A stretch of DNA of 64,000 nucleotides, taken from an uncultured cyanobacterium. GTDB taxonomy: Bacteria; Cyanobacteriota; Cyanobacteriia; Pseudanabaenales; Pseudanabaenaceae. Each line of letters starts with the position of its first letter. The first letter of the stretch is position 1. The notes below the pieces were generated by a model that worked only from the letters and a program-made list of their open reading frames with translations, made no database searches and had not been told where the DNA came from. Positions 1 to 63,089 of the stretch are shown piece after piece. The position numbers were made by a program, and so were the translations under genes. Location: positions 3,104,001 through 3,168,000 of the forward strand of contig OY969811.1 in NCBI GenBank assembly GCA_963703315.1, written 5' to 3'.

Positions 1-660
1 TTCACGCTCAACTTGGAACTTACCGCCACGAGTGATCAAGCGAAAAATTTCATCGTCTTGAGGTTCTAGACCCTGTGGCTCTAGGGGCAGTAGGGTTTGG
101 ACTACTGGACGAGAGCTAATCAAGGACACAAAACGAGTGTAAATCAACTCAACGCGATCAATTACACCAGACAAAAATGCTGAGGTAATTTCATCTTCGA
201 TCGCATTGGCTTCAGCCGCATTAGGAATTTGGTTGAGGTTCGTAAATTTAGCAGCGATCGGTTGATCACGACGGCTAAAGTATTGCGTAGCTTTACGACC
301 GACTAAGATAAAGGTGTAATTAATACCTTGTTCTTTTAATTCCTTAGCGCGAGCTTCGGCACGACGAATAATGGTTGAGTTATAGCCACCACAAAGACCG
401 CGATCGCCTGAAATTACCAGTAGACCAACGGTTTTTACAGGACGCTTTTCGAGTAAGGGCAGACTGACATCCTCGAAGGAAATGCGCTGCTGGAGACGGT
501 AAAGAACTTGTGCTAAGCGATCGGCAAAAGGACGGGTTGCCAAAACTTGCTGCTGAGCGCGTCTGACCTTTGCGGCGGCAACAAGGCGCATTGCTTCAGT
601 AATTTTGCGAGTATTCTTAACACTGCCAATGCGATCGCGGATGGATTTGAGGTTAGCCAT
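1..660 (-). CDS. atpC: ATP synthase F1 gamma subunit (5' part; runs off window start)
   Basis: Not in ORF track. Manual minus-strand translation from ATG at 660: [36 protein letters not shown]...[12 protein letters not shown]..., open to base 1. Named atpG in E. coli. Confidence 0.97.
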
Positions 661-820
661 GAAACTAAATTGCTACTTGCTATGGGAATACTATGAAAAA
701 TTGGGTATATCACGGGAGACATACAGTATCTTAATAAAAAATTGCGCCATCAAACTGCAAACTGTTTTATATCCTTAAATTTTTGCCAACAAACTTTTAA
801 TTTTCTTCTAACTGAGTGAC

Positions 821-1672
821 ATGATTGCTTCTCCATCCTTGTTTACATTGACTAGCCAAATCAACCCTGTTGAGTCACCTGACGATCTGCTGGAAATTGC
901 GGGGCGTAAGTTCCGATCGCGGTTAATGACTGGTTCAGGTAAATACACCAGTTTTGACGTGATGCGCCAAGCGATCGCCTCTAGTGGTTGCGAAATCGTC
1001 ACTGTAGCAGTGCGGCGAGTGCAGACCAATGCGGCGGGACATGAAGGACTTGCCGAAGCGATCGATTGGAGCAAATATTGGCTATTGCCCAACACGGCGG
1101 GCTGCCAGACTGCTGAAGAAGCGGTGCGCGTGGCAAGACTAGGGCGTGAGATGGCGAAGATTTTAGGACAGGAAGATAATAATTTCGTGAAGCTAGAAGT
1201 TATTCCTGATCTCAAATATTTGCTGCCCGATCCGCTTGGTACTTGTAAAGCTGCTGAACAATTGGTGAAAGAAGGCTTTGCGGTACTGCCCTATATCAAT
1301 GCTGACCCCAGACTCGCGAAAACCCTTGAAGAAATTGGTTGCGTGACGGTGATGCCTCTAGGCTCGCCCATCGGTTCGGGTCAGGGCATTAATAACGCCG
1401 CCAATATTCGGATCATCATCGAAGAGTCGAAAATACCCGTTGTCGTGGATGCAGGAATTGGCGTACCTAGCGAAGCCGCCGCCGCAATGGAGTTAGGAGC
1501 CGATGCTTTATTAATTAATACCGCGATCGCCTGTGCGAGTAATCCTGTAGCAATGGGTCGGGCGATGGGCATGGCTTGTGAAGCAGGACGCACCGCCTAT
1601 CTATCGGGCAGAATTCCTGTCAAAGCTTATGCCAGTGCTAGTTCGCCCTTAACAGGAATCGTCAAAAACTAA
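821..1672 (+). CDS. thiG: Thiazole synthase
   Basis: [35 protein letters not shown] and VVVDAGIG motifs. Confidence 0.97.
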
Positions 1673-1699
1673 AAATGGCTCCGCCATTTTTAGTTTTTG
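1663..1699. terminator. Perfect hairpin (17-bp arms, TCC/GGA loop) between convergent genes; likely bidirectional terminator
   Basis: caaaaactaaaaatggc-tcc-gccatttttagtttttg; the arms contain both stop codons. Confidence 0.75.
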
Positions 1700-2808
1700 G
1701 ATAAGGCATGATATTGGGCGATCGCCATATCGTAAATCTGACTCAACCTTTGAGCATGAATCGCAAGGGTAAATTCTTCATGAAACAAAGCATTACCAGC
1801 GATCCCAATGGCACGGGCTTTCTCAAAATTAGTAGCTAGATCAGTAATAGCCGCCGCTAACTGCTCTACGTTATTCGGGGCAACTAAAAGTCCCGTCTTT
1901 CCATCCTGAATATGCTCAGGAATCCCCCCAGTGGCGCTAGCAATCACGGGACGAAATCGCACATAAGCTTCCAGTGTGATCAGTCCCGCAGGTTCTGGCC
2001 ATACACTAGGAAAAATGACCGCAAAGCTTTGACGGTAGAGGTCTTCTAATTTTTCGCTCTGACACCAGCCATGCCAAGTCAGGCGATCGCCAATCTGTAA
2101 GTCTTCAGCTAGTTGACGCACCTGTGGCATTGCCCAGCCTTCACCCGCAATATCAAGATGAATCTGTGGATCTAGCAAAGGCATCGCTCTCAGCAACCAA
2201 TCCAAACCTTTATCAGGGACAATTCTGCCTGCAAAGAAAATATGTTTTTTGTCATGTACATCTTGATCAAGGGGCTGATGCGATGCTTGAGGCGCATTAA
2301 TTCCATACTTCAAGGTTACGACCTGCGATGCAGGTAAGCCGTTAGCGATTAACTGCGATCGCACATAGTCACTATTAGCAATCACCGTAATTTTTAACTT
2401 TTTGAGTGCATTCAAGGCACTATAGGCTCGCTTGAAATTATAAGTAATTTTTTGTGGACGGCGACTGCCACAGCCATCGATCAAATGCCCCCATGTACAT
2501 CCCAAAATAGACATTTGGCGATCGCACACTTTCCCCTGTGTTAGCAAATACTTAGAACCACTAGGACAATAGGGATTATGGTTATGCAAAGTGAAAACCG
2601 CAGGACATATATTTTTTAGATCTTCAAGTATGCCTGCATCATGAATATGTAGTAGTGGATATTGACTTTGATCAATATTAGCTAAAGATGGAAGTACATT
2701 CTGAGCATACATATCTGGCAATGTCGCCAAAAGTCCATCTAAATATGACTTGATTCCACCACCAGAAGCGGCTCCCGTAGCACAATGCTGAACCTTATTC
2801 ATAAACAT
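1690..2808 (-). CDS. Glycosyltransferase family 4 (GT-B fold)
   Basis: FAGRIVPDKG and PSVWPEPAGLITLEA...PVIASATGGIPE motifs. Confidence 0.9.
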   Translation of the reverse strand: MFMNKVQHCATGAASGGGIKSYLDGLLATLPDMYAQNVLPSLANIDQSQYPLLHIHDAGILEDLKNICPAVFTLHNHNPYCPSGSKYLLTQGKVCDRQMSILGCTWGHLIDGCGSRRPQKITYNFKRAYSALNALKKLKITVIANSDYVRSQLIANGLPASQVVTLKYGINAPQASHQPLDQDVHDKKHIFFAGRIVPDKGLDWLLRAMPLLDPQIHLDIAGEGWAMPQVRQLAEDLQIGDRLTWHGWCQSEKLEDLYRQSFAVIFPSVWPEPAGLITLEAYVRFRPVIASATGGIPEHIQDGKTGLLVAPNNVEQLAAAITDLATNFEKARAIGIAGNALFHEEFTLAIHAQRLSQIYDMAIAQYHALSKN

Positions 2809-2815
2809 TCATAAA

Positions 2816-3751
2816 CTAGATTAGCTTTCCTATTGATCGTGGTAAAAGTAATTTAAGAAGTCTCCGAATACCACCTAAGCTAAAGCGTTTAGACAAAGGA
2901 TGGTACTCGCTAAAGTAAACATCTACAGCTTGCTTGCGCTTACCTGAATTAATTAACTGGACGATCGCTATTGGTGCAGATCTTTTCAGTTCATATTCTT
3001 TAGCCCAAGCAATTTCGTCAGGAACATCAGTATTTAAAATATTCTGAAAAGATTGGGCGGCTGAATCAGTTTTCAACGAAATTGCATCACTACTAAGTCG
3101 ATATTTAGCCGTATATTTATCTAAAAAGAAAAAGTTTGGATATTTAATACTAAGTCGTAAACTAAAATCAAAATCCCCTCCATTACCTATTTCTTTATAG
3201 GAACGGTACTTTACAGACTTAGCGGCTGAAGCCAGAACCATGTAGCCATCACTGGGAAACTGATGTAAAATCGCAACTTCCAAAGAAGACTTTTGTAATC
3301 CAGCGCGATCGCTAGTACGAAAGAACACCTGATTGAGATTTTCACTGCGATCTATATCAATAACGCCATCTTCAGAAATGATATATTGCTTACCATAGGC
3401 TGCCACCAAATCTGGATAGATATCCCAGCAACTACTTAGTTCTTCTAGTGCTTCTGGCAGTAATAGATCATCATCATGCAGAAGGACAATTTTATCGCCT
3501 TTTGCAGTTTCATAGAGAAAGTTAACATTTGCTGCCTGACCTAGTGAAGGAGAATGCCGAGTATAAACAATAGGGATTTTACAATCTTTCTTAAGATCTA
3601 AAACTAAATTCTCAGTTATATTGTCAGGAGAGTCATCACCAATGATGATCTCCATAGGCTGAAGAGTTTGTTCAATTACTGACTGTAAAGCTTGTCTAAA
3701 GAGTTTATCTCTTTTATATGTAGGGATACAGACAGATATGGATAATTTCAT
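2816..3751 (-). CDS. Glycosyltransferase family 2
   Basis: SVCIPTY, IIIGDDS and LLHDDD (DxD) motifs. Confidence 0.9.
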   Translation of the reverse strand: MKLSISVCIPTYKRDKLFRQALQSVIEQTLQPMEIIIGDDSPDNITENLVLDLKKDCKIPIVYTRHSPSLGQAANVNFLYETAKGDKIVLLHDDDLLLPEALEELSSCWDIYPDLVAAYGKQYIISEDGVIDIDRSENLNQVFFRTSDRAGLQKSSLEVAILHQFPSDGYMVLASAAKSVKYRSYKEIGNGGDFDFSLRLSIKYPNFFFLDKYTAKYRLSSDAISLKTDSAAQSFQNILNTDVPDEIAWAKEYELKRSAPIAIVQLINSGKRKQAVDVYFSEYHPLSKRFSLGGIRRLLKLLLPRSIGKLI

Positions 3752-3876
3752 TGGGTTTTCTGATTTTAATTCTTCTGGGAATTGATTTCACTATTTTTAC
3801 TTCTGATAAAGTCTAATATACAATACGTCTGATGTGGGTTCAAAATACTCAAGTGATAGGAAGCGTTTATTTAGAT

Positions 3877-4866
3877 ATGTCAAAATCAATAAGAACAACT
3901 TGCCTAATTAATAGCTTTAACTATAAAAGCTACGTTTGTGAAGCGGTCGAAAGCGCACTATCCCAAACCCATCCTTTTGATGAAATAATTGTTGTGGATG
4001 ATTCCTCTACGGATGGTTCTGATGTTTTTTTACAGAGTGAGTATGAGCAAAATCCGAACGTCAAAATTATTATCCACGAACAAAATCAAGGACAGTTAGG
4101 AGCCGTAACTACGGGTTTTTTACAATCAACAGGCGATATTATATTCTTCCTTGATGCCGATGATATTTATCATCCCCAATATCTAGAAACTGCTTTGAAA
4201 ATATATAATGAGAATCCTGTATGTGACTTTATTTTCTTTAAGATGGCAGCTTTTAAGTATCACAAAGAAAACTATCAGGCTCCAACTCAGTTACAAATTT
4301 CTCAATATAGAGACTATATTCAAGACCGTGGATACTCTGTAATTCTTACTATGGAGGAACACACATTTGTTGGTAGTGCCAACTCAGGAAATTCCGTTTA
4401 TAGAAAATATTTAAATGAAATTTTACCCTGTACCTGTATTGGGAATTATCGAATGTGGACTGATAACTGCGTACTCTTTGGCTCTTCACTTCTAGGAGCA
4501 AGAAAGTTTTTTGTCGATCTTCCGATGATTGGCTATCGTAGACATTCAAATAATGACTCTAACAATGTATTTTATTTAGATAGATTCAAGTATTATCAGA
4601 GTCAACTTGCGACAATTCGTTTTTTCACATTTCTGCTCACAAAAACAAACTTAGACCGTTCTCAAATCTCTAGATTCGCTCCCTATGAATTCAAAACTAT
4701 CGACAATCCAACTTGGGAACTTTTCTTTACTTACTTCAAGATCATGTTACGCAATCCATCAAGTGTTCCGCTTGCAGCATGGCAATGGAGTAAGCTGTAT
4801 GGATTAGCAATAATGCTGAAGCATATGCTAAATAGATCATCAAAGAACGTCAAAAAACTAGGCTAA
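3877..4866 (+). CDS. Glycosyltransferase family 2
   Basis: LINSFNY, IIVVDDSSTD and FLDADD motifs; start placed at MSKSIR (track start 3832). Confidence 0.88.
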   Translation: MSKSIRTTCLINSFNYKSYVCEAVESALSQTHPFDEIIVVDDSSTDGSDVFLQSEYEQNPNVKIIIHEQNQGQLGAVTTGFLQSTGDIIFFLDADDIYHPQYLETALKIYNENPVCDFIFFKMAAFKYHKENYQAPTQLQISQYRDYIQDRGYSVILTMEEHTFVGSANSGNSVYRKYLNEILPCTCIGNYRMWTDNCVLFGSSLLGARKFFVDLPMIGYRRHSNNDSNNVFYLDRFKYYQSQLATIRFFTFLLTKTNLDRSQISRFAPYEFKTIDNPTWELFFTYFKIMLRNPSSVPLAAWQWSKLYGLAIMLKHMLNRSSKNVKKLG

Positions 4867-4949
4867 TGCTCAAGTTAGGAGACAATCACCAAATGCAAAG
4901 CAATAGCGATAGTCTTACCTAGTCGCTTTAAGGAGTTACCTTAATATTT

Positions 4950-5978
4950 ATGAATAATTATCCTTATAGACTCAAAGTTGCGAAAGTCCCCGAAGAAGTG
5001 CAGAGACCTTTATGGTCAGTCATGATTCCGACATACAACATGAGTGCTAACTATATACGCGAGACTCTTGCTAGCGTACTTGCACAGGATCTTGGACCAG
5101 ATATGATGCAGATAATGGTTGTTGATGATCACTCTTTGAAAGATGACCCCGAAGCGGTTGTTAAGGAAATCGGGAATGGTCGAGTCGAGTTTTATCGGCA
5201 AGATGCCAATGTCGGTCAGATAAAAAACTTTCAAACTTGTTTAGAAAAAGCTCGCGGTCGATTAATTCATCAACTTCATGGCGATGATCTTGTATGTGAT
5301 GGTTTCTACAGAAAACTGTCGATCGCATTTGAAGAACATCCTGAAATTGGCGCTGCTTTTTGTCGTCATATCATCATGGATGAGCATGGAAATACAATAC
5401 GGGTGACAATTCTAGAACAGCCAGAGAGTGGAGTTTTACCTGAAGATTGGGTTGAAGAGTTGATTGGATTTCAACGAATTCAAACTCCTGCTATAGTTGT
5501 GCGGCGCGATGTCTATGAAGAGCTAGGTGGATTTGATAGTCGTGCAGGCATCGCTCAAGACTGGGAAATGTGGGTGCGTGTTGCTAGTAGTTATCCAGTA
5601 TGGTACGAAACTGATATTCTCGCTAAGTGGCGCAAGCATCCTAGTTCTACTACTTCTAACAACATACGCAATGCAACTATGATGCGCGATATCGCACGGG
5701 TGATATCGATTTTTAAAGAAGAAAATATCTCTGGTAGAGTTACTGATGCTCTGGTTAAGCATACAAAACAAAACGGTGCTTTCGATGCACTTTCCAAGGC
5801 AGACTCTTTGATAAATGCTGATAATGCTTATGCTGCAATCAATCAGATTAAAGAAGCCGTGATAATGCGTCCGAGTTTTAAGACAATTCGTTCTGCGGGA
5901 AGAATTATTTTGCTAGATGGCTCTCGTTGGTTATGGCGTAATTTGCTCAGAAAGTTGCGCGGAAAGTTAAAAAATTAG
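4950..5978 (+). CDS. Glycosyltransferase family 2
   Basis: SVMIPTYN, VVDDHS, LHGDD and GGFD..QDWEMW motifs; 12-nt convergent overlap with menA. Confidence 0.9.
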   Translation: MNNYPYRLKVAKVPEEVQRPLWSVMIPTYNMSANYIRETLASVLAQDLGPDMMQIMVVDDHSLKDDPEAVVKEIGNGRVEFYRQDANVGQIKNFQTCLEKARGRLIHQLHGDDLVCDGFYRKLSIAFEEHPEIGAAFCRHIIMDEHGNTIRVTILEQPESGVLPEDWVEELIGFQRIQTPAIVVRRDVYEELGGFDSRAGIAQDWEMWVRVASSYPVWYETDILAKWRKHPSSTTSNNIRNATMMRDIARVISIFKEENISGRVTDALVKHTKQNGAFDALSKADSLINADNAYAAINQIKEAVIMRPSFKTIRSAGRIILLDGSRWLWRNLLRKLRGKLKN

Positions 5979-6890
5979 GCTGATGCTAAGGCAAGAGCCA
6001 ACGACAAAATGTAAAGCAACAGCAATAAATCGACAGTTTAGTAATAAATCGGCGCGTTCATGGTTCTCACCAATAAACATACATAATTTCCATGCGATCG
6101 GTAAGCTGACTAGCACGATCGCTGTCCAGATCGGAAATAAGTTAAGGGCGATCGCCAGAATTGTAATTCCATAAATGACACCACAGAGCCAAGGCAAAAG
6201 CTGGGCTGAGCGCTTAGTTCCTAGACGGACAACAGGCGATTTTTTTCCTGCCGCCAGATCATCAGCAACTTGATTAAAGTGTGAACAAAATAAAATCAAA
6301 CTTGTAATAATGCCAACGATGATTGCCGCAGATAAAGAGCCAGTTGACCAAGATTTAGTTTGACTGTAATAGGCGGCGGAAACTCCTAAAGGTCCAAAGG
6401 CAAAGAAGCATAAAATTTCACCCCATCCCTGATATCCCAACCGAAAGGGGGGACCTTGATAGATATAGCCCAGAAAGCAACAAATAGCAATCATCCCAAT
6501 TACGACCAAATCCTGCTGTAAATAGGAAATAGCTAGTACACCGATAATGCCAAGGACTAGACAAATATTAGCGATCGCAAAAATTAGGTTTTTCTTTCCC
6601 GTGAGATTAACTACTGAATGGGCTTTGTTAACATCAATTCCTGTCTCTGCATCAAATACATCATTACAGAGATTTTCCCACACCAAAATCAAGACGGCAG
6701 AAACCAAAAATGTTAAAAAAATGCTCCAGTTAATTGCCCCAGTATCCCGATAGGCGATCGCTGTACCTGTAGCGATTGGTACGATCGCCACACTATACAT
6801 AGGAAATTTAATCGCTGCCATCCATAGTTTACGGTGATCAGGACGGGGATCACGGGATAACTCAGGGGAATCAATGAGACTTTTTACCAT
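5967..6890 (-). CDS. menA: 1,4-dihydroxy-2-naphthoate phytyltransferase (UbiA family)
   Basis: AAIKFPMYSVA, NDVFDAETGID and YQGPPFRLGYQGWGE motifs; multiple TM helices. Confidence 0.93.
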   Translation of the reverse strand: MVKSLIDSPELSRDPRPDHRKLWMAAIKFPMYSVAIVPIATGTAIAYRDTGAINWSIFLTFLVSAVLILVWENLCNDVFDAETGIDVNKAHSVVNLTGKKNLIFAIANICLVLGIIGVLAISYLQQDLVVIGMIAICCFLGYIYQGPPFRLGYQGWGEILCFFAFGPLGVSAAYYSQTKSWSTGSLSAAIIVGIITSLILFCSHFNQVADDLAAGKKSPVVRLGTKRSAQLLPWLCGVIYGITILAIALNLFPIWTAIVLVSLPIAWKLCMFIGENHERADLLLNCRFIAVALHFVVGSCLSISLIF

Positions 6891-7072
6891 ACAGACTGAA
6901 ATTAGGCTAAAAGAATTGGCGATCGCTTAAATATGATTTCAGTAGTTTAACGTGAATAGGGATAGGTTCTGGTTATCCTGAAATTATTGGTGTTGCATAT
7001 AAAATCAGGTTTATGATTGAGTCTCAAGTCTCAACTATAAAAGTTTACAAATTTTATAAAATAGGTTTATTT

Positions 7073-7534
7073 ATGGTGATCGCAAAAACTGATAATCCCA
7101 AAAAGTTCTTACAGGTTTTCCAAATTACCTGCTTGTCTCTCCTGCTCTGTATTTGTACTTTTGCGTTTAGTACTCCAGCTTGGGCAACTGTGCAAATAAA
7201 GCTGACTGAGATGACCTATGAGCCATGTACAGGCGAGGCTGGCAAAAATATGGTGCTAGGTGGCGGCGTAATGTCGGCAAATTGCTTTATGGTCAAAGGT
7301 ATTGCTAACAATACGTCAGGCAAAGTTGTTTACAATGCGGATATCTTTGGGCGCATTTATGATGCTAATGGTAATGATGCGATGCCAGAGCGCACTAGAT
7401 TGGGCGCAGTTGATGAATTACCGATCGGTAAAAGTGAGTTTCAAATCATGGTGGGTATTCCTGCGGATCAACCTGAGCCACTTCAGTTAAAGCAGTTTAA
7501 AGCTTCAGGATTTGCAGGCAAGGTCAGACGCTAG
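7073..7534 (+). CDS. Conserved cyanobacterial secreted/lumenal hypothetical protein
   Basis: Signal-peptide-like segment ending PAWA; VYNADIFGRIYDA and LKQFKASGF motifs. Confidence 0.7.
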   Translation: MVIAKTDNPKKFLQVFQITCLSLLLCICTFAFSTPAWATVQIKLTEMTYEPCTGEAGKNMVLGGGVMSANCFMVKGIANNTSGKVVYNADIFGRIYDANGNDAMPERTRLGAVDELPIGKSEFQIMVGIPADQPEPLQLKQFKASGFAGKVRR

Positions 7535-7544
7535 TTTGAAACCC

Positions 7545-7601
7545 CTTGATAATCCCAAAACACAAAATGGCGTAGCCATTTTGTGTTTTGGGATTATCAA
7601 G
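7545..7601. repeat. Perfect intergenic hairpin, 27-bp arms, GTA loop
   Basis: cttgataatcccaaaacacaaaatggc-gta-gccattttgtgttttgggattatcaag. Confidence 0.9.
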
Positions 7602-7719
7602 AACATTTGACGGTTAGTGCCGCCACTGCTTTAGTTGTGCGATCGCGTTAAAATGGAGATTCGTCAGTATGGCAAAATCTAAAGTTCTACTCTAAAGTTC
7701 TCAGAATCGATACAAAAAT

Positions 7720-7995
7720 ATGGCTGTCAAAGTTTTAATTCCCACTCCTCTACAACAATTAACCAACAACCAAGCCACCGTAGAATGCGCTGGCGCGTCA
7801 GTTCAAGAAATCATTGATTCATTGGAAACAAATTGTCCGGGTATCAAAGCTCGTATTTGTGACGAACAAGGTAATCTCCGCCGTTTTGTTAATTTTTATG
7901 TCAATAGTGAAGATATTCGCTTCCTTGATGGAGCAAATACTGCTCTCAATGATGGTGATGAAGTAAGCATCATTCCTGCGATCGCAGGGGGCTAA
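7720..7995 (+). CDS. MoaD/ThiS-family ubiquitin-like sulfur carrier
   Basis: 91 aa; C-terminal IIPAIAGG di-glycine. Confidence 0.92.
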
Positions 7996-8034
7996 TAATA
8001 ACAAAAGGGGATGCCAAGCATCCCCTTTTGTTTA

Positions 8035-8337
8035 TTAATTAAGCATTTCGGTAGCAAGATGTAACATCAAAATTGCCGCTTCCTTCTTGAGATCTGGCTC
8101 TTTGGTTTTGCCTCCCCAATTTTGTAGCCATTTGCCTAACCCACCAAACGCGCCGCCGAGCCATTGCCCCACCTGAGCAAAAATCTGCTGTGGTCCTACA
8201 CCAGTTAAAACTTGGATTGCAAAAATAACGGCAACCACAAGGAAAGCAGTTTTAAAGCTGGCTTTAATCACACTGAGTAACCACCAAAACAGCAGTAGTG
8301 AAACGATTAGTGCACCGATTACTAGGGGCAAATTCAT
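8035..8337 (-). CDS. Small membrane hypothetical protein
   Basis: Two hydrophobic helices, GVGPQQIF motif; start placed at MNLPLV. Confidence 0.7.
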   Translation of the reverse strand: MNLPLVIGALIVSLLLFWWLLSVIKASFKTAFLVVAVIFAIQVLTGVGPQQIFAQVGQWLGGAFGGLGKWLQNWGGKTKEPDLKKEAAILMLHLATEMLN

Positions 8338-8415
8338 AGAGTTTTTTCCATCCCATCTCAATTTCAAAGAGTTTATTTGATTTTGGCATGATCCTGTCAT
8401 TGCCAAGTTCTCATC

Positions 8416-9063
8416 ATGTCTCAAGATTTACAACTTTATCAGGCTAGTCTAGATATCTCGTCAATTGAGTACGATCGCCTCTGGCAATTTCTATCAGAGG
8501 ATGAGCGATCGCGTGCTGTTCAATTCAAACGCAATGCTCTGAGACGTAATTTTGTGGCGGCAAGAGGCAATCTGCGAACAATTTTAGCGCACTGGCTAAA
8601 TTGTGAACCGAGGGAAATTCAGTTTGGTTATGGCGATCGCGGTAAGCCCTATTTACAAAATGTTCAAGAACTTTATTTTAATTTGGCACATTCTCAAGAT
8701 TTAGCGATTTATGTGGTGAGTAGCGATCGCGAAGTTGGGATTGATTTGGAATACATCAATTCTAAATGTGATGTTGTGGGGATTTCCAAGAGATATTTTT
8801 TGCCATTGGAGCAGCAAATTATTCAAAATTGCAATCAGAGTCTAGCTATTCAATCTTTTTATCAAGCATGGACTCTCAAAGAAGCCTATGGCAAAGCGAC
8901 AGGACAAGGGATTGCGAATATTCTTGAGAGTATCGATGTCTCACCATTACTAACAAGGTCTCTCGGTAAAACATTGCGGATTGGAAATTGGAGTTTAAAA
9001 CTGCTTAGTACAGAATTGGAACTAGAGGCAAATTACACAGCCGCTTTATGTATAGCAGAGTGA
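8416..9063 (+). CDS. 4'-phosphopantetheinyl transferase (Sfp/HetI type)
   Basis: GKP, FNLAHS, VGIDLE and WTLKEAYGKATGQG motifs. Confidence 0.93.
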   Translation: MSQDLQLYQASLDISSIEYDRLWQFLSEDERSRAVQFKRNALRRNFVAARGNLRTILAHWLNCEPREIQFGYGDRGKPYLQNVQELYFNLAHSQDLAIYVVSSDREVGIDLEYINSKCDVVGISKRYFLPLEQQIIQNCNQSLAIQSFYQAWTLKEAYGKATGQGIANILESIDVSPLLTRSLGKTLRIGNWSLKLLSTELELEANYTAALCIAE

Positions 9064-9103
9064 GTACTCAAAACGATAGAACAAGGGGCTTCAGCCCCTT
9101 GTT

Positions 9104-9853
9104 CTATCCTTGACGATGTAAAATCTTACCTGCTAGCATCGCGGCTCCAAATCCATTATCGATATTCACCACACCTACACCTGTCGCACAGGAATTGAGC
9201 ATGGTTAATAATGGAGCCAGACCATTAAAACTTGCGCCATAACCGATACTGGTCGGGACTGCCACAATCGGACAATTTGCTAAACCTGCTACCACACTGG
9301 CAAGCGCTCCTTCCATTCCTGCCACCACAATAATCACATCGGCATCGGCGATCGCCCCTTGATGACTGAGTAACCGATGAATCCCTGCCACACCCACATC
9401 CCAAAGTCGTTTAACGGTAAAGCCACATAGTTCTCCTGTGACGGCAGCTTCTTCCGCGATCGGCAGGTCAGCAGTTCCTGCGGTGAGAATTGTCATAGTG
9501 CCTTGCTTCTTCATGGTGGATTCACCGAGGCAGCAAATTTGGGCGATCGGGAAATATCGCAAACCACGCAATGATGGCTGAATCTGCTCATAAACTGTGG
9601 ATGAAATTTTAGTTGCCATCACTAATGGATTTTTCGATTCCATCACCCGCATGATCTGCACGATTTGGTCAGGAGTCTTGCCTAAGCCAAAAATCACTTC
9701 TGGAAAGCCTGTCCGCAAAGCTCGATGGTGATCGATCTTGGCAAAATCTCCCACCGACTCATAGTGAAGATATTTCAATGCTTCTACAGCTTTCTCTGGA
9801 CTAAGTTCCCCCTTTGCAACTGTCTCTAACAGTTGTCTCAAGTTATCGTGCAT
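9104..9853 (-). CDS. larB: LarB/CpmA (PurE-like, NCAIR mutase-related) protein
   Basis: AKIDHHRALRTGFPEV, AGTADLP, DVGVAGIHRL and NIDNGFGAA motifs; start placed at MHDNL. Confidence 0.88.
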   Translation of the reverse strand: MHDNLRQLLETVAKGELSPEKAVEALKYLHYESVGDFAKIDHHRALRTGFPEVIFGLGKTPDQIVQIMRVMESKNPLVMATKISSTVYEQIQPSLRGLRYFPIAQICCLGESTMKKQGTMTILTAGTADLPIAEEAAVTGELCGFTVKRLWDVGVAGIHRLLSHQGAIADADVIIVVAGMEGALASVVAGLANCPIVAVPTSIGYGASFNGLAPLLTMLNSCATGVGVVNIDNGFGAAMLAGKILHRQG

Positions 9854-15611: not shown

Positions 15612-16859
15612 GTGATTGAAAAATTGATAACAGATAACAACCATGAACAAGCACTAATCTCCTATGAAAAGAAATTACAAGATCATCCTGATGATTATGA
15701 AGCATGGAACAATCGAGCTATTGCTTTAGGCTATTTAGGTAGACATGAAGAAGCACTCACATCCTATAACAAAGCAATACAAATAAACCCTAATGCATCT
15801 GAAGTATGGCATAGTCAAGGATGGGAACTAGTTAATTTAGGCAGAAATGAAGAAGCAATCACCTGCTTTCATAAAGTACTAGAGATCAGTCCTGACAACA
15901 ATTCAGCATGGTACAACTTAGGTGTTGCATTAGTTAATTTAGGTAGATATGAAGAAGCAATTCCAGCTTTTAATACAGCAGTAAAACTTAGTCCTGCCAA
16001 ATATGAAGCATGGCATAACCAAGGATGGTCACTAGTTAGTTTAGGTAGATATGAAGAAGCAATCAACTCATTTGACATGGCTTTACAACTTAATCCTGAT
16101 GTAAACGAGGCATGGCATATTCGGGGTATTGCTTTAGCTAATGTTGGTAGATACGAAGATGCAATTAGATCATATAAAAAGGCTTTGCTAATCAATCCTG
16201 TCGCATACCGAGCATGGTATAACCAAGGAACTGCGTTAGCTAAAATAGGAAGGTATGAAGAAGCGATTTTATCTTTATTTCAAGCTATACAAATCAAGCC
16301 CCAAGAAGACTTTCTTTGGAATGGAATAGAAGCTTTATTATTTGCGATTAAAGAGCATTTTAAATCTTTAGGCGAAGTAGAGAGTAGATCAATAATAATT
16401 CAAGCATATAAAAATGGGATTAGAATCCTTGAGCAAATAGGAGATCAGCAACGTTTTCTCAAGTTTTCTTATCAATTAGGAAAAGTATTGTTAGAGATAG
16501 GAAACTATACCGAAGCAATTGAAAATCTTCAAGCCTGTGAGCAAATCTCTCAAAAGTTAAATGATATTCCTACCCTAGCTTTAACCTTATTTGATTTAGC
16601 GCGACTATATCACCTTACAGGTAGGCTAGAACAAGCGAGACTATATTTTAAGGACTCATTACGACTGTTTAGGCGATTACAAGATCCCGAAAAAATTGCA
16701 GCAGCAACATTAGCTTTGGGCAATTTAGAAATGCAAATCGGTAAGATTTCTCAAGCTTTAACTCACTTAAAAGAAGCAGAAACTTATTATCAATCTCAAG
16801 ATGACTCTGATCGTTTACAAGAAGTTAATTACTTACTCCAAATCCTACAAGCAGCTTAA
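15612..16859 (+). CDS. TPR repeat protein
   Basis: About 6 canonical 34-aa repeats (AW.N.G..L..LGRYEEAI), then longer C-terminal TPR-like helices; GGAGG RBS before GTG. Confidence 0.9.
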   Translation: MIEKLITDNNHEQALISYEKKLQDHPDDYEAWNNRAIALGYLGRHEEALTSYNKAIQINPNASEVWHSQGWELVNLGRNEEAITCFHKVLEISPDNNSAWYNLGVALVNLGRYEEAIPAFNTAVKLSPAKYEAWHNQGWSLVSLGRYEEAINSFDMALQLNPDVNEAWHIRGIALANVGRYEDAIRSYKKALLINPVAYRAWYNQGTALAKIGRYEEAILSLFQAIQIKPQEDFLWNGIEALLFAIKEHFKSLGEVESRSIIIQAYKNGIRILEQIGDQQRFLKFSYQLGKVLLEIGNYTEAIENLQACEQISQKLNDIPTLALTLFDLARLYHLTGRLEQARLYFKDSLRLFRRLQDPEKIAAATLALGNLEMQIGKISQALTHLKEAETYYQSQDDSDRLQEVNYLLQILQAA

Positions 16860-16862
16860 ATT

Positions 16863-18107
16863 ATGTCACCTAAAAAATCTCGACTTGGCGGTTATCTAGA
16901 ATCCCTCAAAAAATGGGAACTACGAGAAAATCCGTTTCACGCAACCCCGCCCGATGATCCACAACTACTAGCTCAAATATTTTATGGGCGCGATCAAGAA
17001 TTAGATATTGCCATTCCTACACTCTATGAAGGTAATAATATTCTAGTGAGAGGCACTTGGGGCATTGGTAAAACAGCTCTCATCCTCAATTTAATCTATC
17101 AACTACAACAAGAAGTAGCCGCTCAAGAGGAAAAGATGCTGGTACTTTATCTGAGTAGTATTCCAGCAGATAAACCTGTGGATTTTTATCGATCCTTATT
17201 AATGGCGATCTCAGACAGTTTAAAAGAGCAAGATTCCGAAGCTCAGGACATTGTCAATAGTCTGTTAGGTTATTCGATCCAACGTACTAAAACTTCTACT
17301 GAAGGCAAAGTTCAATTGTGGTCAATATCCTTTAGCGTCAAAGATGAAACTCCTTCTAATCCACTTACGCCAAATACTAACGCTGATCCTTATCCTTTAC
17401 TAATGCGACTATTAGATAAAGCCGAACAGAGATATAATCGCATAGTTTTTGCGATCGATGACTTTGACAAAAAAGATCCCATTGTTGTCCAAACCATTCT
17501 AGAAGGAAGCCTCGACCTTTTCCGTAATAGTAAAAATCGTGCGTTTATCATCACAGGCAGAGGTTTTACCGATCTCCAAGAAGCAACCTTAAAAGCTTTA
17601 GGCATCTTTTCAGAAGATATTAACCTTCCACCTATGGCTCCAGACGATCTGCGACACATAGCCATCAACTATCTTAATAGTGCCAGAATTTCTTCCCGTG
17701 ATGATTGTTATCCTTTTACTGACGAAGTGATGACGTTAATCACTGACTATGCCCAAGGATTTCCTCGCCAGCTAAACACCATTTGCGAGAAAGTGTTACG
17801 CCAAGCAGCATCTAAAGGATATGACGAAATTAACTTAGAAGCTTTTACAGATGTCTGGCAACTAGTCCAACAAGACTATACACGTTCCATTTCTCCTCAA
17901 TTACGTCATTTACTCTATGTCGCCCACCAAGCAGGAGGCATAAGTGAAGATATTGAAGATGAAGATTTAGCCAAACTAGATGCCTTAACCTATGTTTCGC
18001 TATTACCAAAACTCAAATCGATGGAAGATCTAGGAGTATTAATTCGTCGAGAAGATGAGGGCGGTATTCGTTTCTTACCATCCAAACTATTTCAACCGCC
18101 CACCTGA
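16863..18107 (+). CDS. P-loop ATPase (AAA+/STAND-like) with probable C-terminal winged helix
   Basis: FYGRDQEL, Walker A GTWGIGKT, Walker B IVFAIDDFD, GFPR; starts 3 nt after the TPR gene. Confidence 0.85.
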   Translation: MSPKKSRLGGYLESLKKWELRENPFHATPPDDPQLLAQIFYGRDQELDIAIPTLYEGNNILVRGTWGIGKTALILNLIYQLQQEVAAQEEKMLVLYLSSIPADKPVDFYRSLLMAISDSLKEQDSEAQDIVNSLLGYSIQRTKTSTEGKVQLWSISFSVKDETPSNPLTPNTNADPYPLLMRLLDKAEQRYNRIVFAIDDFDKKDPIVVQTILEGSLDLFRNSKNRAFIITGRGFTDLQEATLKALGIFSEDINLPPMAPDDLRHIAINYLNSARISSRDDCYPFTDEVMTLITDYAQGFPRQLNTICEKVLRQAASKGYDEINLEAFTDVWQLVQQDYTRSISPQLRHLLYVAHQAGGISEDIEDEDLAKLDALTYVSLLPKLKSMEDLGVLIRREDEGGIRFLPSKLFQPPT

Positions 18108-57131: not shown

Positions 57132-57386
57132 ATGGATGCAATGACGACTCAACAAGCAAGCAATAACTTAGATAGATTGATCGATCGCGTAATTGACAAT
57201 GTACAGCCAACTATTCTTTGTAATGATAAGGGTAATAAGGCTATTTTGATTTCGCTAGACGAATTCTCTGCTTGGCAAGAGACTTTATATTTACTGTCTA
57301 ATCCCTTTAATGCTAAACATCTGCTTAGTTCAATTGAATCTGCAAAGACAGGTAAAATTCTGGAAAGAACCTTGATCGAAGAATGA
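57132..57386 (+). CDS. yefM: Phd/YefM-family antitoxin
   Basis: A..NL..LID.V and WQETLYLLSNP.NA..L motifs; AGGAG RBS; ATGA overlap with the toxin start. Confidence 0.88.
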   Translation: MDAMTTQQASNNLDRLIDRVIDNVQPTILCNDKGNKAILISLDEFSAWQETLYLLSNPFNAKHLLSSIESAKTGKILERTLIEE

Positions 57387-57865
57387 AACTGACATTTACA
57401 GAAGCTGGTTGGAATGATTACCTATGGTTTCAAGATACTGATAAAAAAATCCTCAAAAGAGTCAATCTTCTGATTAAACCCACATTCCGCTCGTAATGGA
57501 GGCCTAAAAATATTTACAACGAGACAATGAGGGTTTCAGCGATTTTCTGGAAAATTAATGATAATGACTCCTATTAGTACGTCATTATTGACAATATTAA
57601 GATAGTGTTATTTTTCTGACGAAAGCCCAAAATACTTACTGTATAAGGATTTGTTTTCTAAATATTTTTTTCAGTAAAATAAGAGCGGAATGTGGGTTAA
57701 AGATACTCTACGCAATCCTTTTGAAGGAGTGGAAAACCAGAACCATTGAAAGCCAATCTATCAGGCTATTGGTCAAGGCGCATTAATACAGAGCATCGAT
57801 TAGTTTATGAAGTATTAGAGGATAGTGTTTTAGTTGTTGCTTGTCGATTTCATTATCAAGACTAG
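57383..57865 (+). pseudogene. yoeB: Txe/YoeB-family toxin pseudogene (MITE insertion plus 1-nt frameshift)
   Basis: MKLTFTEAGWNDYLWFQDTDKKILKRVNLLIK [MITE] DTLRNPFEG(frameshift)[28 protein letters not shown]...ACRFHYQD*. Confidence 0.92.
57479..57696. mobile_element. 218-bp MITE with IS1634-type ends
   Basis: Left 22 nt identical to the IS1634 TIR; right end gagcggaatgtggg; TTAAA duplicated at 57474-57478 and 57697-57701. Confidence 0.92.
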
Positions 57866-57897: not shown

Positions 57898-59280
57898 TTA
57901 AGGATTTTTAGAGTTGCGCGATCGCACAAACAACCAAATAAGAAAACCACAAATTGTGCCGATCGCTATACTGCCAAAGAAAACTATAGCTATGTAACTT
58001 AGGGGCTGATAGCTAGGCTCGTCAGTTTTGATGTTGGGAGGAAACTGAGCCAAAATAATGCTGCCAATTACTTGACTTGTGCCTAAGCCTGTACCGACAG
58101 CGAAGATGGTTTGGTTGAGTTTGCGATCGCTTTTGGCTTGTTCAATGTTGATGATGCCTTCAATATTGCGAACGGAGTTTTCGAGGGATTTTTGGGTTGG
58201 GCTGAGGCTGGCGAGATCGGCGGTAATTTGGGGGAGATATTTGTCGGTGACGATCGCTGTGAATTTCTCTAGGAATGGCTGATCGATATCTTGCTTGGAA
58301 TCTTCAAATTGTTTAAGCTGCTTTTGATAGTTTTTGAGATTGGTTTCGATGGTGTTTTTTTGATCTTCTAAATAAATTAGTTCTTCGGCATAGGTGGTCA
58401 TCAAGTTTAAGGTGGATTTTAAATCTTGTTGTAATGCGACTAAATCGGTTTTGGTACTGTCATCAGCGATCGCGATTTTGATTGGCTTTGCTGCATTTTT
58501 AAGGTTGGCTTTGTGATAGCGACTGCGAGAATATGACCAGATGATTTTGTGGCGATATAAAAATAGTTGCATTAGGCGAGGATAGAGATTAGAGATTTTT
58601 TCGCCGATCGCTTCAATCTTTAGATCGTGGGGAAAGAGACAAATTAGGAGATGTTTGCTTTGGCTGATATCGCCGCGATCGCTTGGTAGTTGCCATAGCT
58701 CGAAACAGTCCGCACCTATGAGTTTGGCTGATGTAGATTTGAGATGTTTTTTCCAGTTTGGTACATCAAAGATTTGCAGTTGGTTATAAATTTGCTCGGC
58801 TATTTGGGCAGGGTCTTGAGTGGGGCTGGTGAGTTGTCCCCAAACAAACCAAGTTTGACCGATGTGATTGGTTGATGGCTTGCCCTGACTGTGGAGATGG
58901 GAGAGGATATTTTGCTGGATTTTTTGGAAATTTGTAATGTCGCGGGGTGCATATTCTGGGATGGTGTCATCGCGATCACTGCTACAACCAACTTGGAGAG
59001 CATAGGTATCATTGATTTTGACTGGATAGTAAAAGCCAGCCAAAGGATCTGCAAAATCTTCGCAGGGGTTTGCGCCTAGTAATTCGATATAGTCGGAAAG
59101 TTCGGATTCAATTTGAATGAAATTTGATAATTGGGCAGGAGTTAGTTTTTTGCCATAGATTTGTTGCCAAAAATTTTCACAATTTTGTTTAATCTCATTA
59201 TCACTTTGTCCTAGCCCTTCGATGATGTCGTAGCTGAATAGATCGATTGTGGGATAGATAATGGTGTTAGGTTCTGTCAT
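57898..59280 (-). CDS. Hypothetical protein with soluble N-terminal domain, long helical/coiled-coil region and two C-terminal TM helices (CorA-like topology, no GMN motif)
   Basis: TM candidates TIFAVGTGLGTSQVIGSIIL and YIAIVFFGSIAIGTICGFLIWLFV, followed by a basic tail. Confidence 0.75.
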   Translation of the reverse strand: MTEPNTIIYPTIDLFSYDIIEGLGQSDNEIKQNCENFWQQIYGKKLTPAQLSNFIQIESELSDYIELLGANPCEDFADPLAGFYYPVKINDTYALQVGCSSDRDDTIPEYAPRDITNFQKIQQNILSHLHSQGKPSTNHIGQTWFVWGQLTSPTQDPAQIAEQIYNQLQIFDVPNWKKHLKSTSAKLIGADCFELWQLPSDRGDISQSKHLLICLFPHDLKIEAIGEKISNLYPRLMQLFLYRHKIIWSYSRSRYHKANLKNAAKPIKIAIADDSTKTDLVALQQDLKSTLNLMTTYAEELIYLEDQKNTIETNLKNYQKQLKQFEDSKQDIDQPFLEKFTAIVTDKYLPQITADLASLSPTQKSLENSVRNIEGIINIEQAKSDRKLNQTIFAVGTGLGTSQVIGSIILAQFPPNIKTDEPSYQPLSYIAIVFFGSIAIGTICGFLIWLFVRSRNSKNP

Positions 59281-59291
59281 AGGTACTTCAG

Positions 59292-59741
59292 TTACAAAGG
59301 AAAATTAGTGAGAAACTCATAAGCAGCTTGCACTGAATCGGCAGATTCCAAAATAGATTTTGCACTTTCTTCAAGAGCGCGATCTGTAATTTTTTCTAAC
59401 TTCTGTAAATGCAAAAGATTTTCTAGTGGGGTTTTATCTTGTAACTGACTGATATTTTCGATCGCTAAGCTTTCAGGGTTGTCTTTTACACCTGCTGCAT
59501 TTGGTTTAAAAGACCTTCCTTTGTTCCTTTCCTGAGATGGATCTAGCCATTTACGAGCAGTTATATATGGTTGAGTGAAGAGGGGATTTTGACGGGCGAT
59601 CGCATCAAGATTGCTGATGTTCTCATTGAGGTTTTTACCGATCTGGTTGAGGCGATCTTGAAGATCGGCTGCGAGTGGATCGGTTTGCTGGACTAGGGCA
59701 AATAGAAATGCTTTGAGGGTAACGGCTTCGTGATCTTTCAT
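59292..59741 (-). CDS. Small alpha-helical hypothetical protein coupled to the CHAT gene
   Basis: ATGA overlap (59738-59741) with the CHAT stop; 11 nt before the next gene. Confidence 0.8.
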   Translation of the reverse strand: MKDHEAVTLKAFLFALVQQTDPLAADLQDRLNQIGKNLNENISNLDAIARQNPLFTQPYITARKWLDPSQERNKGRSFKPNAAGVKDNPESLAIENISQLQDKTPLENLLHLQKLEKITDRALEESAKSILESADSVQAAYEFLTNFPL

Positions 59742-62572
59742 AGTCCTGTGATGGTGAAGGCTGACCAGTGATAGGGATGATTATATGGTTTTAAGTCTGT
59801 GGATGCAGAAATTTGATCAAGGTCATTTTGAGAAAGGTCATCAAGGCGATCACGCAACCAAGGAATCAAACTATGGTTAGTTGGTAGCTTATCGATTTGT
59901 TGGTTATACCATTTTCTTAGATCTTCATTGGTAATATTGCGTAGCCAATATTTGGCGGCGGCAATAGCCACATCTGCGGATTGATCTTCTTCTACATAGC
60001 GGCGGTGAAACTCGATCATTAGTAGAGCGCTAGATATGGATTCGACTGTCCAGAGGGTGCTGACGACATTGGCAACACCGCTATACATGAATGCGCTGAC
60101 GATGCCGATATATTCCTTAGTGATGGTTTGGTTGCCCGCGATCGCAGTTTCACAGGCACAGAGACAGGCGAGTTGATAGCTGCTGAGATCGAGGTTGCCG
60201 ATCGCTTTGAGGGTGAGGCGATCTCTACCACTGAGGGCGAGGGCGGAGTTGATCGGGCTGAAAAAATCATAGTAACCATGCCCTGTAAAGTGAAAGATGG
60301 TATGGGGTTGGGGTGTTGTGGCGGTGAGTTGGGCGGTGACTTCTGCAAGGGTGGTTTCGGCTTTGGCTCTGCGAGTTGATTCGCCATAAATCCGACAGAT
60401 TAGTTCCGATTCTGCTTCGGCGGCGGTGAGTTTGGGTAGATTTTGCTTTGTGCTGTCTTCAAGTGTGATGCTGCTGTCAGGGTTTTCGATGCTGAGGAGG
60501 CGTTTGTAATTGGGTTTTGGTTGGTTGAGAAGTTTGATGCCAACTTGAATGCTCGGTAAATAGGCGATCGTGTATTTAGGGTCAAAGAGGCTATCTAGGG
60601 GATAGAGGTGCAGGTCACGGTGAGGAATGAGAAGCAGTTGGGTACAGTGGGGAGAGTCTGCAAGGGCTGCTTCGATGTTAGTGATGTGGAGAACGGTTTT
60701 GAGTGTGGCAAGGCGTTCTTCCATTTGAAAGCGCCAAGGATGATTTTTGCCTTTTGCTTCGGGCTTAGCTTCCTGTGATTCAGATTTGGTTTTCTTACCG
60801 CCATAGTTAGCGTAATCCTTTTGCCATGCGGTCATCCAGTCGGTAAGTTGGTTGCGTTGGGTGAGGGGGGCGTTTTCGGTGGTTGGGGTTGGGAGTAAGT
60901 TGAGTGTGATTTCGGATGAGGCGTTGGGAGCGAGAATGAAGGTGGTGAGGACGTTGTCGCTGAGATGCCAATAGATTATCGCGGTGTTGGGCTTTTGCTT
61001 GAGGAAGGCGCACATTTGCGAATAGTCGGGGCTTGGTTCGGTGGTATCCGCTAAGAGTCCATCACGCAGAAAAGCATTTTTATCTTTTTCGGCAATTTCA
61101 AGGGCTTCTATCAGTTTGCCTTGTTGGATGTATAAGTTTACAGTCAATTCATTAAAGTAGGGTCTGAACTTCCGTTCAAAGATTTCTCTATTTCCTCCTG
61201 ATTTCCCTTTTAGTTGGGCTTCTAGAAAATCGGTTCCTTTCCGCAATAGTCCTTCAACTTTTTCGGTTTCGTGTAATGCTAAAAGGACGCGAATGTAGTC
61301 TTGTAAAGTTTCTAGATGGGCGGTTTCAAATTTTGGTGTCAGGGCTTTTAAAGAATTTTCGTAGCTGATGATTGCCTTCCGCCAAAGAGGGAAAGGATTT
61401 GTCTGGATACTACCATGATCATAATTAGAGATTCCTAGATAGCGATGTAATTGTCCCCAGCCCTCTGGTTCAGTTTCTTGATTAATATATTTGAATCCCT
61501 CATTGTAAGATACAAGGCTTCCCTGATAACCGCGCAGATCAAGTGCAGGATTTTGCATATCTTGTGGTAAAAGCTTGCCAAATAATTTTAGAAGTGTATT
61601 TTTTTCTTTACCTTCACTTTTTGAGGCAGCATTACCACGATTAGTCCATGCTCGCCACGAATTCCCTTTTGCAATCACCAATGCCTTGTCGAAGAAGATT
61701 ATCGCCTCTTCGTATCTATATAAGTATTCACAGAATAAAGCACCTTTGCTTATCCAAATATTCTCATTATCGGGATTAATACTGATTGCACGATCCAAAG
61801 ATATTATTGCCTCGTCATATCTTCCCAAACGAACTAGGCAAAATCCTTTGCTATGCCAAGCACTCTCATAATCAGGATTGATGCTAATAGCGCGATCCAA
61901 GGATATTATTGCTTCTTCATATCTTTCCAAATCAGCTAGGTAAACCCCCTTGTTATGCCAAGTACTCGCATAATCGGGATTAATGCTGATGGCGCGATCC
62001 AAAGATATTATCGCCTCTTCATATCTTCCCAAAGTAGCTAGAGAAGCTCCTTTGTTAAGCCAAGCGCTCTCATAATCAGGATTAATGCTGATGGCGCGAT
62101 CAAAGCATATTATCGCCTCTTCATATCTTCCCAAATCAGCTAGGGAAGATCCTTTGTTATACCAAGCAATCTCATGATTGGGATTGATGCTGATGGCACA
62201 ATCATAGGAAGTTATCGATTCTTCATATCTTCCTAAATTAGCAAGGGAAGCTCCTTTGTTAATCCAATTAATCTCATGTTCTGAATTGATGCTGATGGCG
62301 CGATCAAATGATATTATCGACTCTTGATATTTTCCTAAGTTAGCTAGTGAAGTTCCTTTATTATACCAAGCAGTCTCATGCTCAGGATTAATGCCGATAA
62401 CGCGATCATATGATTTTATAGCCTCCTCATAGTTTCCTAATTGATATTGATAGTTACCGTTATCATACCAAAATTCATAATCTTTAGTTCTGATTTTTTT
62501 TGAAGAAGTAGGCTTCTTTTGAGAATGCGAATCCTTTGATTTTTTGCCGCCAAATCCATTGCTGCTAGCCAT
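59738..62572 (-). CDS. TPR-CHAT (caspase-like) protease
   Basis: 8 TPRs, then CHAT motifs LLLIPHRDLHLYP, FHFTGHG (His), LCACETA (Cys), VSTLWTV and HPYHWSAFTITG. Confidence 0.93.
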   Translation of the reverse strand: MASSNGFGGKKSKDSHSQKKPTSSKKIRTKDYEFWYDNGNYQYQLGNYEEAIKSYDRVIGINPEHETAWYNKGTSLANLGKYQESIISFDRAISINSEHEINWINKGASLANLGRYEESITSYDCAISINPNHEIAWYNKGSSLADLGRYEEAIICFDRAISINPDYESAWLNKGASLATLGRYEEAIISLDRAISINPDYASTWHNKGVYLADLERYEEAIISLDRAISINPDYESAWHSKGFCLVRLGRYDEAIISLDRAISINPDNENIWISKGALFCEYLYRYEEAIIFFDKALVIAKGNSWRAWTNRGNAASKSEGKEKNTLLKLFGKLLPQDMQNPALDLRGYQGSLVSYNEGFKYINQETEPEGWGQLHRYLGISNYDHGSIQTNPFPLWRKAIISYENSLKALTPKFETAHLETLQDYIRVLLALHETEKVEGLLRKGTDFLEAQLKGKSGGNREIFERKFRPYFNELTVNLYIQQGKLIEALEIAEKDKNAFLRDGLLADTTEPSPDYSQMCAFLKQKPNTAIIYWHLSDNVLTTFILAPNASSEITLNLLPTPTTENAPLTQRNQLTDWMTAWQKDYANYGGKKTKSESQEAKPEAKGKNHPWRFQMEERLATLKTVLHITNIEAALADSPHCTQLLLIPHRDLHLYPLDSLFDPKYTIAYLPSIQVGIKLLNQPKPNYKRLLSIENPDSSITLEDSTKQNLPKLTAAEAESELICRIYGESTRRAKAETTLAEVTAQLTATTPQPHTIFHFTGHGYYDFFSPINSALALSGRDRLTLKAIGNLDLSSYQLACLCACETAIAGNQTITKEYIGIVSAFMYSGVANVVSTLWTVESISSALLMIEFHRRYVEEDQSADVAIAAAKYWLRNITNEDLRKWYNQQIDKLPTNHSLIPWLRDRLDDLSQNDLDQISASTDLKPYNHPYHWSAFTITGL

Positions 62573-62618: not shown

Positions 62619-62882
62619 TCAAATTTTAACAACTGCTTCATCCAATCTCCACAAACTTAACCAAACACTAGTTTCATGATCGCCATAACCCCGCAACCAA
62701 AACACCATCTGCTGATCCCCACAGCGATCGCCCAAAAGTTTTAATAATCTCTGCTCATCCCAATTCGCCGCCACACCTTGCAGAACTTGCAGAAACATCT
62801 GCTCATATTCGCGATCGGTTAACGGAACAAGAGACGGCGATCCGTCCGACTTACCACCAAACAAACCCTTTAACCAACTCAT
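62619..62882 (-). pseudogene. Short ORF resembling the detached N-terminal domain of cyanobacterial TPR(-CHAT) proteins
   Basis: MSWLKGLFGG...LTDREYEQMFLQVLQGVAANW...FWLRGYGD followed by a 19-aa tail that looks unrelated; family assignment from memory. Confidence 0.5.
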
Positions 62883-62931
62883 CACGCACCCAGCCTCGCT
62901 ATAAGCTCCCAAAATTTTAGCAATTTTTTTC

Positions 62932-63089
62932 GTAGGGGCTAAGCATTCCCGCAAATATTTAAGAATTTTTAGACACCCTCAAATTGGGAATGCTTAGCCC
63001 AAAGCTAAAAGCAAAGAGGGTTTAGCATTTGCAGATCGAGATTTTTTATGGTGGATTTTGCGATCGCGGCGCAAATGCTAAACCCCTAC
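62932..63089. repeat. Pair of GTAG-type REP/REPIN-like inverted repeats
   Basis: gtaggggctaagcattccc...gggaatgcttagccc and gggtttagcatttgc...gcaaatgctaaacccctac. Confidence 0.75.

Follow-up and report, generated by a model that had tools for sequence, protein, structure and literature searches.

A conserved mobile cassette of cyanobacteria links a TPR-CHAT protease gene to genes for a small helical protein and a protein of predicted CorA-like topology: a candidate protease-gated cell-death defence

Among 50 bacterial gasdermins, 43 adjoin proteases, mostly of the C14 or CHAT type, and some of these are fused to TPR, WD40 or NACHT domains (10.1101/2021.06.07.447441). CHAT proteases with a dedicated substrate are known from Craspase (Csx29-Csx30) and from cyanobacteria, where HetF cuts PatU3 after an arginine, between R117 and S118 (PMC9457339). 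In the EACC1-caspase and Pepco systems, site-specific proteolysis is the switch and sensors are swapped around a constant protease-effector core (PMC12642450); in type III CRISPR systems, a CorA-like protein with two transmembrane (TM) helices serves as immune effector (PMC10600005). The present study concerns a cassette of three genes in a 64,000-nt stretch of DNA (the window) from an uncultured cyanobacterium of the Pseudanabaenaceae (contig OY969811.1, positions 3,104,001-3,168,000). Its layout is closest to that of the computationally predicted CATRA (caspase/TPR-associated) systems, which have three parts, i.e. a TPR-fused caspase-like protease, a small protein and a larger partner with a variable effector position. 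The genes are as follows, M being our name for the 460-aa protein of the cassette.

59738..62572, minus strand: TPR-CHAT protease gene, 944 aa, upstream gene of the cassette
59292..59741, minus strand: gene for the small helical protein, 149 aa, candidate protease substrate and gate
57898..59280, minus strand: M gene, 460 aa, candidate effector

An earlier reading of the letters (the sequence-only reading) had described three tightly coupled genes, and the coordinates agree: the protease and small genes share an ATGA overlap (59738-59741) and 11 nt (59281-59291) separate the small gene from the M gene. The protease, which supplies the TPR-fused caspase-like element of a CATRA layout, consists in order of a basic N-terminal tail, eight TPR units of 34 aa each (aa 30-301, the eighth longer by one residue), a helical middle region and a CHAT caspase-like domain (Pfam, E = 9e-36) with the catalytic residues His765 (HFTGHG) and Cys807 (LCACET); the eight repeats and both catalytic motifs had been read correctly. 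Among the CHAT domains of such cassettes, the dyad is retained almost throughout (His in 87/88, Cys in 88/88). Identity between close alleles is 43-49% for the TPRs versus 65-67% for the CHAT domain, i.e. the TPRs change faster. Third-codon-position usage and GC skew shift sharply within the gene (59738-61000 versus 61650-62572), the TPR part being T-rich and the CHAT part C-rich, which is consistent with a mosaic gene.

Gene neighbourhoods were collected with a profile built from 48 M proteins. Out of 150 listed matches, 120 from 63 genomes were kept (weak fragments, second pieces and the match in the window itself were left out). A same-strand CHAT gene ends within 2.6 kb upstream of M in 93 of these loci, an arrangement whose chance, computed in the source genome, is about 0.5%; 11 others have a C14 caspase gene instead (10 divergent, one on the same strand), so that a caspase-family protease lies within that distance in 104/120 loci. 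Of the 16 loci with neither, seven reach the end of their contig within 1.7 kb. The small gene was detected as a gene of its own in 79/94 CHAT loci (window counted) and in 10/11 caspase loci, usually between the protease and M genes. Nine more loci, which belong to two distinct clades, encode the small protein as a C-terminal extension of CHAT (seven recognised with a profile, two from the length and appearance of the tail); fusion to M was never seen. The sequence-only reading had made its proposal depend on co-occurrence of the three genes elsewhere, and they are indeed a conserved mobile cassette.

The caspase-linked M proteins form one clade inside the CHAT-linked ones (FastTree support 0.985, a measure that can overstate). 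Small protein and M therefore kept a caspase-fold partner through a swap of the sensor. The caspase genes that were scanned encode caspase-STAND proteins ending in WD40 repeats, in TPR plus RelA or in a CRISPR-associated domain; nine scanned genes, lying divergently or upstream, matched STAND and have WD40, TPR or other domains at their C-terminal ends. Most of the 11 caspase loci have a divergent caspase-STAND-WD40 gene. The partners also diverge together: the nearest neighbour of M is that of CHAT in 46/83 loci and, once kin more than 60% identical were removed, it is among the top five of CHAT in 52/83 loci, against about 5 by chance. Paralogues within one genome were nearest neighbours in 0/56 cases, as expected for cognate sets.

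Individual loci vary in their proteases. On a plasmid (L153, NZ_AP017561.1, 117937-135310), the small and M genes are followed by three tandem CHAT genes, and the locus also holds a divergent AAA_35 ATPase gene and TPR genes; another plasmid locus (L154) is a further caspase-STAND case. A caspase-STAND-TPR protein of 1913 aa with fused RelA/SpoT, TGS and ACT domains is encoded divergently from the small and M pair at L060:4886-10624 (+), and tandem caspase-nSTAND1 genes, one with a Cas_APE2256 end and one with WD40 repeats, lie at L068:4565-12024 (+).

In its AlphaFold model (mean pLDDT 86), the small protein is predicted to consist of one helical lobe at about aa 3-66, another at about aa 95-146 and, between them, an exposed linker with an Arg; the linker is of low confidence (pLDDT 50-60) and carries E71-R72-N73-K74-G75. 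It gave no fold match and no Pfam, NCBIfam or PADLOC family above cut-off; weak matches to CorA (E = 0.23) and to other coiled-coil proteins (SMC; MakE, E = 0.1) were judged noise. Every small protein of the subfamily to which that of the window belongs (29/29) and every caspase-linked one (10/10) has an Arg in the linker. An Arg followed by G, A, S or N is found in 22/29 of the former (shuffle mean 12, reached in 0/500 shuffles) and in 8/10 of the latter (shuffle mean 3.9, reached in 3/500).

For M, the model comprises an alpha/beta N-domain (about aa 1-220), a helical hairpin, a stalk helix (339-395) and two C-terminal membrane helices, i.e. the predicted topology is that of CorA, Mrs2 and ZntB. 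All 25 matches listed by Foldseek were CorA, CmaX, ZntB or Mrs2, with a best E of 1.1e-4, a span from 1e-4 to 1e-2 and low template-modelling scores. Two C-terminal hydrophobic segments start at about aa 392 and 430, the first being weak and Gly/Ser-rich, and two or three such segments are found in 101/114 family members. CorA proteins are defined by a GMN/GxN selectivity motif after TM1. It was not found in M; the family columns at that position are variable, and the conserved TM1 pattern is G-x-G-x-G/A. Two TM helices after long helices and the lack of GMN had both been noticed in the sequence-only reading. Its CorA-like guess is supported for the predicted fold and fails for the motif and the sequence profile: M had no match to PF01544 in Pfam scans, and hhalign gave a probability of 1.6% against 33 cyanobacterial CorA sequences and of 0.4% in a second comparison. 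No Pfam, NCBIfam or PADLOC family was above cut-off, PADLOC CorA and CRISPR models included, and the closest named relatives are Pseudanabaena hypothetical proteins. Haemagglutinin and spike entries in a PDB sequence search (E above 0.005) were judged noise. A canonical CorA is encoded elsewhere in the source genome.

The C-terminal part of M can be exchanged. In one locus (L150), the two TM helices are replaced by the bacterial death-like domain bDLD1 (E = 6e-8, over the cut-off) and the gene order is CHAT, M-bDLD1, small, bDLD1-caspase; in its sister locus (L151), M carries bDLD1 and a trypsin domain, and a bDLD1-iSTAND gene lies downstream. The swap was seen in these two related loci. In multicellular bacteria, domains of the bDLD type are described as homotypic adaptors in systems that counter invaders (PMC8195603), and the exchange is the strongest sign that the cytosolic body of M serves a conflict system as a regulated platform and is no transporter. 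The operon of L150 is headed by a CHAT protease with four Clp N-terminal domains ahead of its TPRs (4334-9466, minus strand). At L110:6750-8867 (+) and in protein P0198, M is fused behind TPRs, and L110 has no adjoining CHAT gene; this may be what a deletion left behind, or else a fusion of sensor and effector that works without a protease.

How close the cassette comes to CATRA depends on what is compared. The layout agrees and a language-model search of the Atlas with M gave the CATRA-N plus CATRA-C cluster as third-best named match (score 0.88, 173/256 features), behind MJ1566_N (0.91) and DUF3422 (0.89). This part of the CATRA likeness drawn in the sequence-only reading stands, weakly in the case of the language-model features; the Pfam part does not, and because the Pfam CATRA models do not match, the cassette is not filed as a CATRA member. 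CATRA-N (PF20269) and CATRA-C (PF20270) had no match in 51 M proteins scanned, and CATRA-N was found in 0/301 cyanobacterial genomes, in a scan that had no positive control and whose control genomes were silent. CATASP (PF20271) was found in 0/70 small proteins at E = 0.05 among the best 25 of 37 families, and was not found in the source genome, the controls again being silent. Neither 10 actinobacterial plasmids nor the surroundings of 11 actinobacterial CHAT genes yielded CATRA sequences, and a supplement search for PMC12642450 gave no CATRA matches. The CATRA cluster is mainly actinobacterial whereas the M family is cyanobacterial; here the usual output is two TM helices, and a caspase-STAND-WD40 version exists.

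Like the cassette, gasdermin operons place a CHAT or C14 protease with a TPR, WD40 or NTPase sensor beside a candidate membrane effector (10.1101/2021.06.07.447441), but M is modelled as an alpha/beta domain with a helical stalk and two TM helices, it had no gasdermin family in Pfam scans and no gasdermin fold, and the cassette has the small protein in addition. In the type III CRISPR effector, too, CorA similarity is limited to the C-terminal part and the N-terminal region is distinct, but that effector binds SAM-AMP made by Cas10 (PMC10600005), whereas the constant partner of M is a protease. In EACC1-caspase and Pepco the small protein is the pore (PMC12642450), whereas here the 460-aa M is the more conserved constant part. 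The Csx29 equivalog model scored 34 bits on the protease against a cut-off of 300; neither CRISPR effector nor het genes recur beside the cassette, and no Cas7-11 gene or CRISPR array was noticed among the long open reading frames of the window, for which no family search was made. Apaf-1-like STAND proteins with an N-terminal caspase have been noted in cyanobacteria, with no mention of CorA in the text available (10.64898/2026.01.04.697583), and the accessible parts of PMC7159879 and 10.64898/2026.08.12.744502 contain no such cassette. Our literature searches, whose coverage left out most subscription papers, found no description of it. We concluded that the cassette is a real, widespread and uncharacterised protease-effector unit.

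The M profile matches 70/401 cyanobacterial genomes, one of them probably by chance, and the family has 949 representatives at 50% identity. Matches in genomes G405 and G058 (E about 1e-3 to 4e-4 over about 80 aa) were judged chance coiled-coil similarity. In the window's own family, 12/70 other genomes match, at differing chromosomal sites and often with decayed copies; 14 plasmid records match, several of them from near-identical strains, and up to four divergent cassette paralogues per genome were seen among the loci examined. Phage-borne copies were not found in phage records or viral contigs. A single-protein scan of genome contigs yielded just two broken copies, and longer fused forms of 917-2615 aa were not found, which is weak evidence.

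We propose that the cassette is a protease-gated cell-death defence, a reading to which we give a probability of roughly 0.5. A trigger, phage or other invader, would bind the TPRs and so activate the CHAT protease, which would cut the linker of the small protein after a basic residue, here R72 or K74. The uncut small protein would keep the cytosolic body of M shut; cleavage would free M to oligomerise or open, and the cell would depolarise, sacrificed for the filament. On this view, the body of M would be an oligomerisation platform under the control of a gate; its C-terminal output would usually be a pore of two helices and sometimes a bDLD1 adaptor, through which a second protease would be recruited. 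Gene linkage, the intact dyad, the swap of sensor-proteases, the fusion of small protein to protease, co-divergence and the output swap of M are observed directly. The sequence-only reading had already suggested immunity and gains from the caspase-STAND-WD40 swap and the bDLD1 fusions; its sensing, cleavage and pore steps are what we infer. Two points weigh against the proposal. Co-divergence is partly due to shared descent of the cassette and is therefore evidence of long linkage, not of binding, and the linker Arg motif is absent from one large subfamily of small proteins.

This latter absence favours another arrangement with the same outcome, in which the protease acts on M itself, by cutting or binding it, and the small protein serves as an adaptor or as a securin-like protease inhibitor. 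The nine fusions, always to the protease and never to M, also speak for it, as does the R-G or R-F-G stretch directly ahead of bDLD1 in the M-bDLD1 proteins. However, the change of protease class left the small gene beside M (10/11 caspase loci), the divergence of the small protein tracks that of M at least as well as that of CHAT (Spearman 0.65 versus 0.61), and in the model of M the cytosolic portion outside the TM region has no long linker that is exposed. We consider this arrangement improbable, albeit worth keeping in view.

HetF, a CHAT-TPR protease that governs cell division and heterocyst formation (PMC9457339), raises the prospect of a developmental or stress switch of filamentous cyanobacteria, in which proteolysis of the HetF-PatU3 type would control an ion channel with no role against invaders. 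That the cassette is common in a few families (24/25 genomes of f3, 26/46 of f7) and that the source genome has 17 CHAT genes would suit such a switch. It is hard to reconcile with the patchy presence, shifting sites, plasmid carriage, decayed copies and divergent paralogues described above, and the STAND and bDLD1 partners are parts of conflict systems (PMC8195603; 10.64898/2026.01.04.697583), so that we find it unlikely. Scarcely better or worse placed is the idea that the small protein, once cleaved, acts as the death effector in its own right, with M localising the complex as membrane anchor or scaffold. There is precedent in the small protease-linked proteins proven to form pores, and CATASP is counted among protease-associated effectors (PMC12642450). 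Against it, the small proteins differ strongly from one another (mean column identity 15%) and have no conserved catalytic or membrane segment, whereas M is far better conserved and bears the swappable output slot. That M is an ordinary divalent-metal transporter with incidental neighbours, which the CorA-family structures at the top of the Foldseek ranking might suggest and which the sequence-only reading had named as fatal to its proposal, is very improbable in view of the missing GMN, the lack of a profile match, the separate canonical CorA, the protease linkage and the loss of TM helices in L150 and L151; M as an ordinary CorA is ruled out by the first three. Taken together, the three readings that end in protease-dependent death, i.e. 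the gate that we prefer, the adaptor or securin and the small effector, are quite probable.

The cassette lies in a variable island, as the sequence-only reading had it: its flanks, ctaB and a phosphodiester-glycosidase gene, are 6.2 kb apart here and adjoin (92-162 nt) in 6/13 same-genus genomes in which both flanks were paired (24 searched), which is why the region is regarded as an island. The toxin-antitoxin locus and the REP-like (repetitive extragenic palindromic) repeats reported there were also recovered, with the refinement that the toxin gene is broken by an element resembling a miniature inverted-repeat transposable element (MITE). We take this gene to be yoeB-like from its position after yefM and from its sequence features. 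The other features of the island are:

57132..57386, plus strand: yefM antitoxin gene (Pfam PhdYeFM, E = 7e-14), island passenger outside the cassette
57383..57865, plus strand: presumed yoeB-like toxin gene, interrupted at 57474-57701, island passenger
57474-57701: MITE-like element of 228 nt with imperfect terminal inverted repeats of 46 nt; breaks the yoeB-like gene, yefM intact
62619..62885, minus strand: relic N-terminal domain of another TPR-CHAT allele, about 88 codons, now a separate reading frame
62936-63000 and 63018-63085: two hairpin repeats with perfect 15-bp arms, at the right edge of the island, upstream of the cassette

The MITE-like element has 15 copies in the genome (97-100% identity), and the arm of the second hairpin occurs eight times. 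The relic matches the N-termini of cassette CHAT proteins and is near-identical to the start of a 1164-aa CHAT protein in L174, which suggests that the sensor end was exchanged or rearranged. In other loci, dense arrays of what we take, from sequence features, to be toxin-antitoxin pairs lie beside a truncated M gene (L001, about 2800-7300; L182, about 100-4300), and presumed toxin-antitoxin genes with a transposase adjoin the intact cassette of L174. Elsewhere in the window (16077-18107, plus strand), a TPR gene and, after it, an open reading frame for a P-loop ATPase-like protein of 414 aa are possibly another conflict module.

Filamentous cyanobacteria are rich in CHAT proteases and caspase-STAND proteins with few known substrates, and for a large set of these proteins the cassette offers one definite candidate substrate and one candidate effector. 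Three genes and two point mutants would suffice to put cyanobacterial programmed cell death to a direct test. If the proposal is true, a protease-gated CorA-fold effector would be added to bacterial immunity, together with an experimental handle on the logic of CATRA. More tentatively, and with the odds somewhat against it, the cassette may belong to an inflammasome-like pathway of multicellular cyanobacteria in which interchangeable sensor-caspases (TPR-CHAT or caspase-STAND-WD40) cut a securin-like gate and free a CorA-derived oligomeric platform; this would kill by a two-helix pore or, where it is tipped with a death-like domain, by nucleating another caspase. In that case caspase-controlled executioners would comprise, besides gasdermins, a second class with the CorA fold, and a single immune superfamily derived from CorA would include CATRA, DUF3422 and MJ1566-like proteins as remote offshoots.

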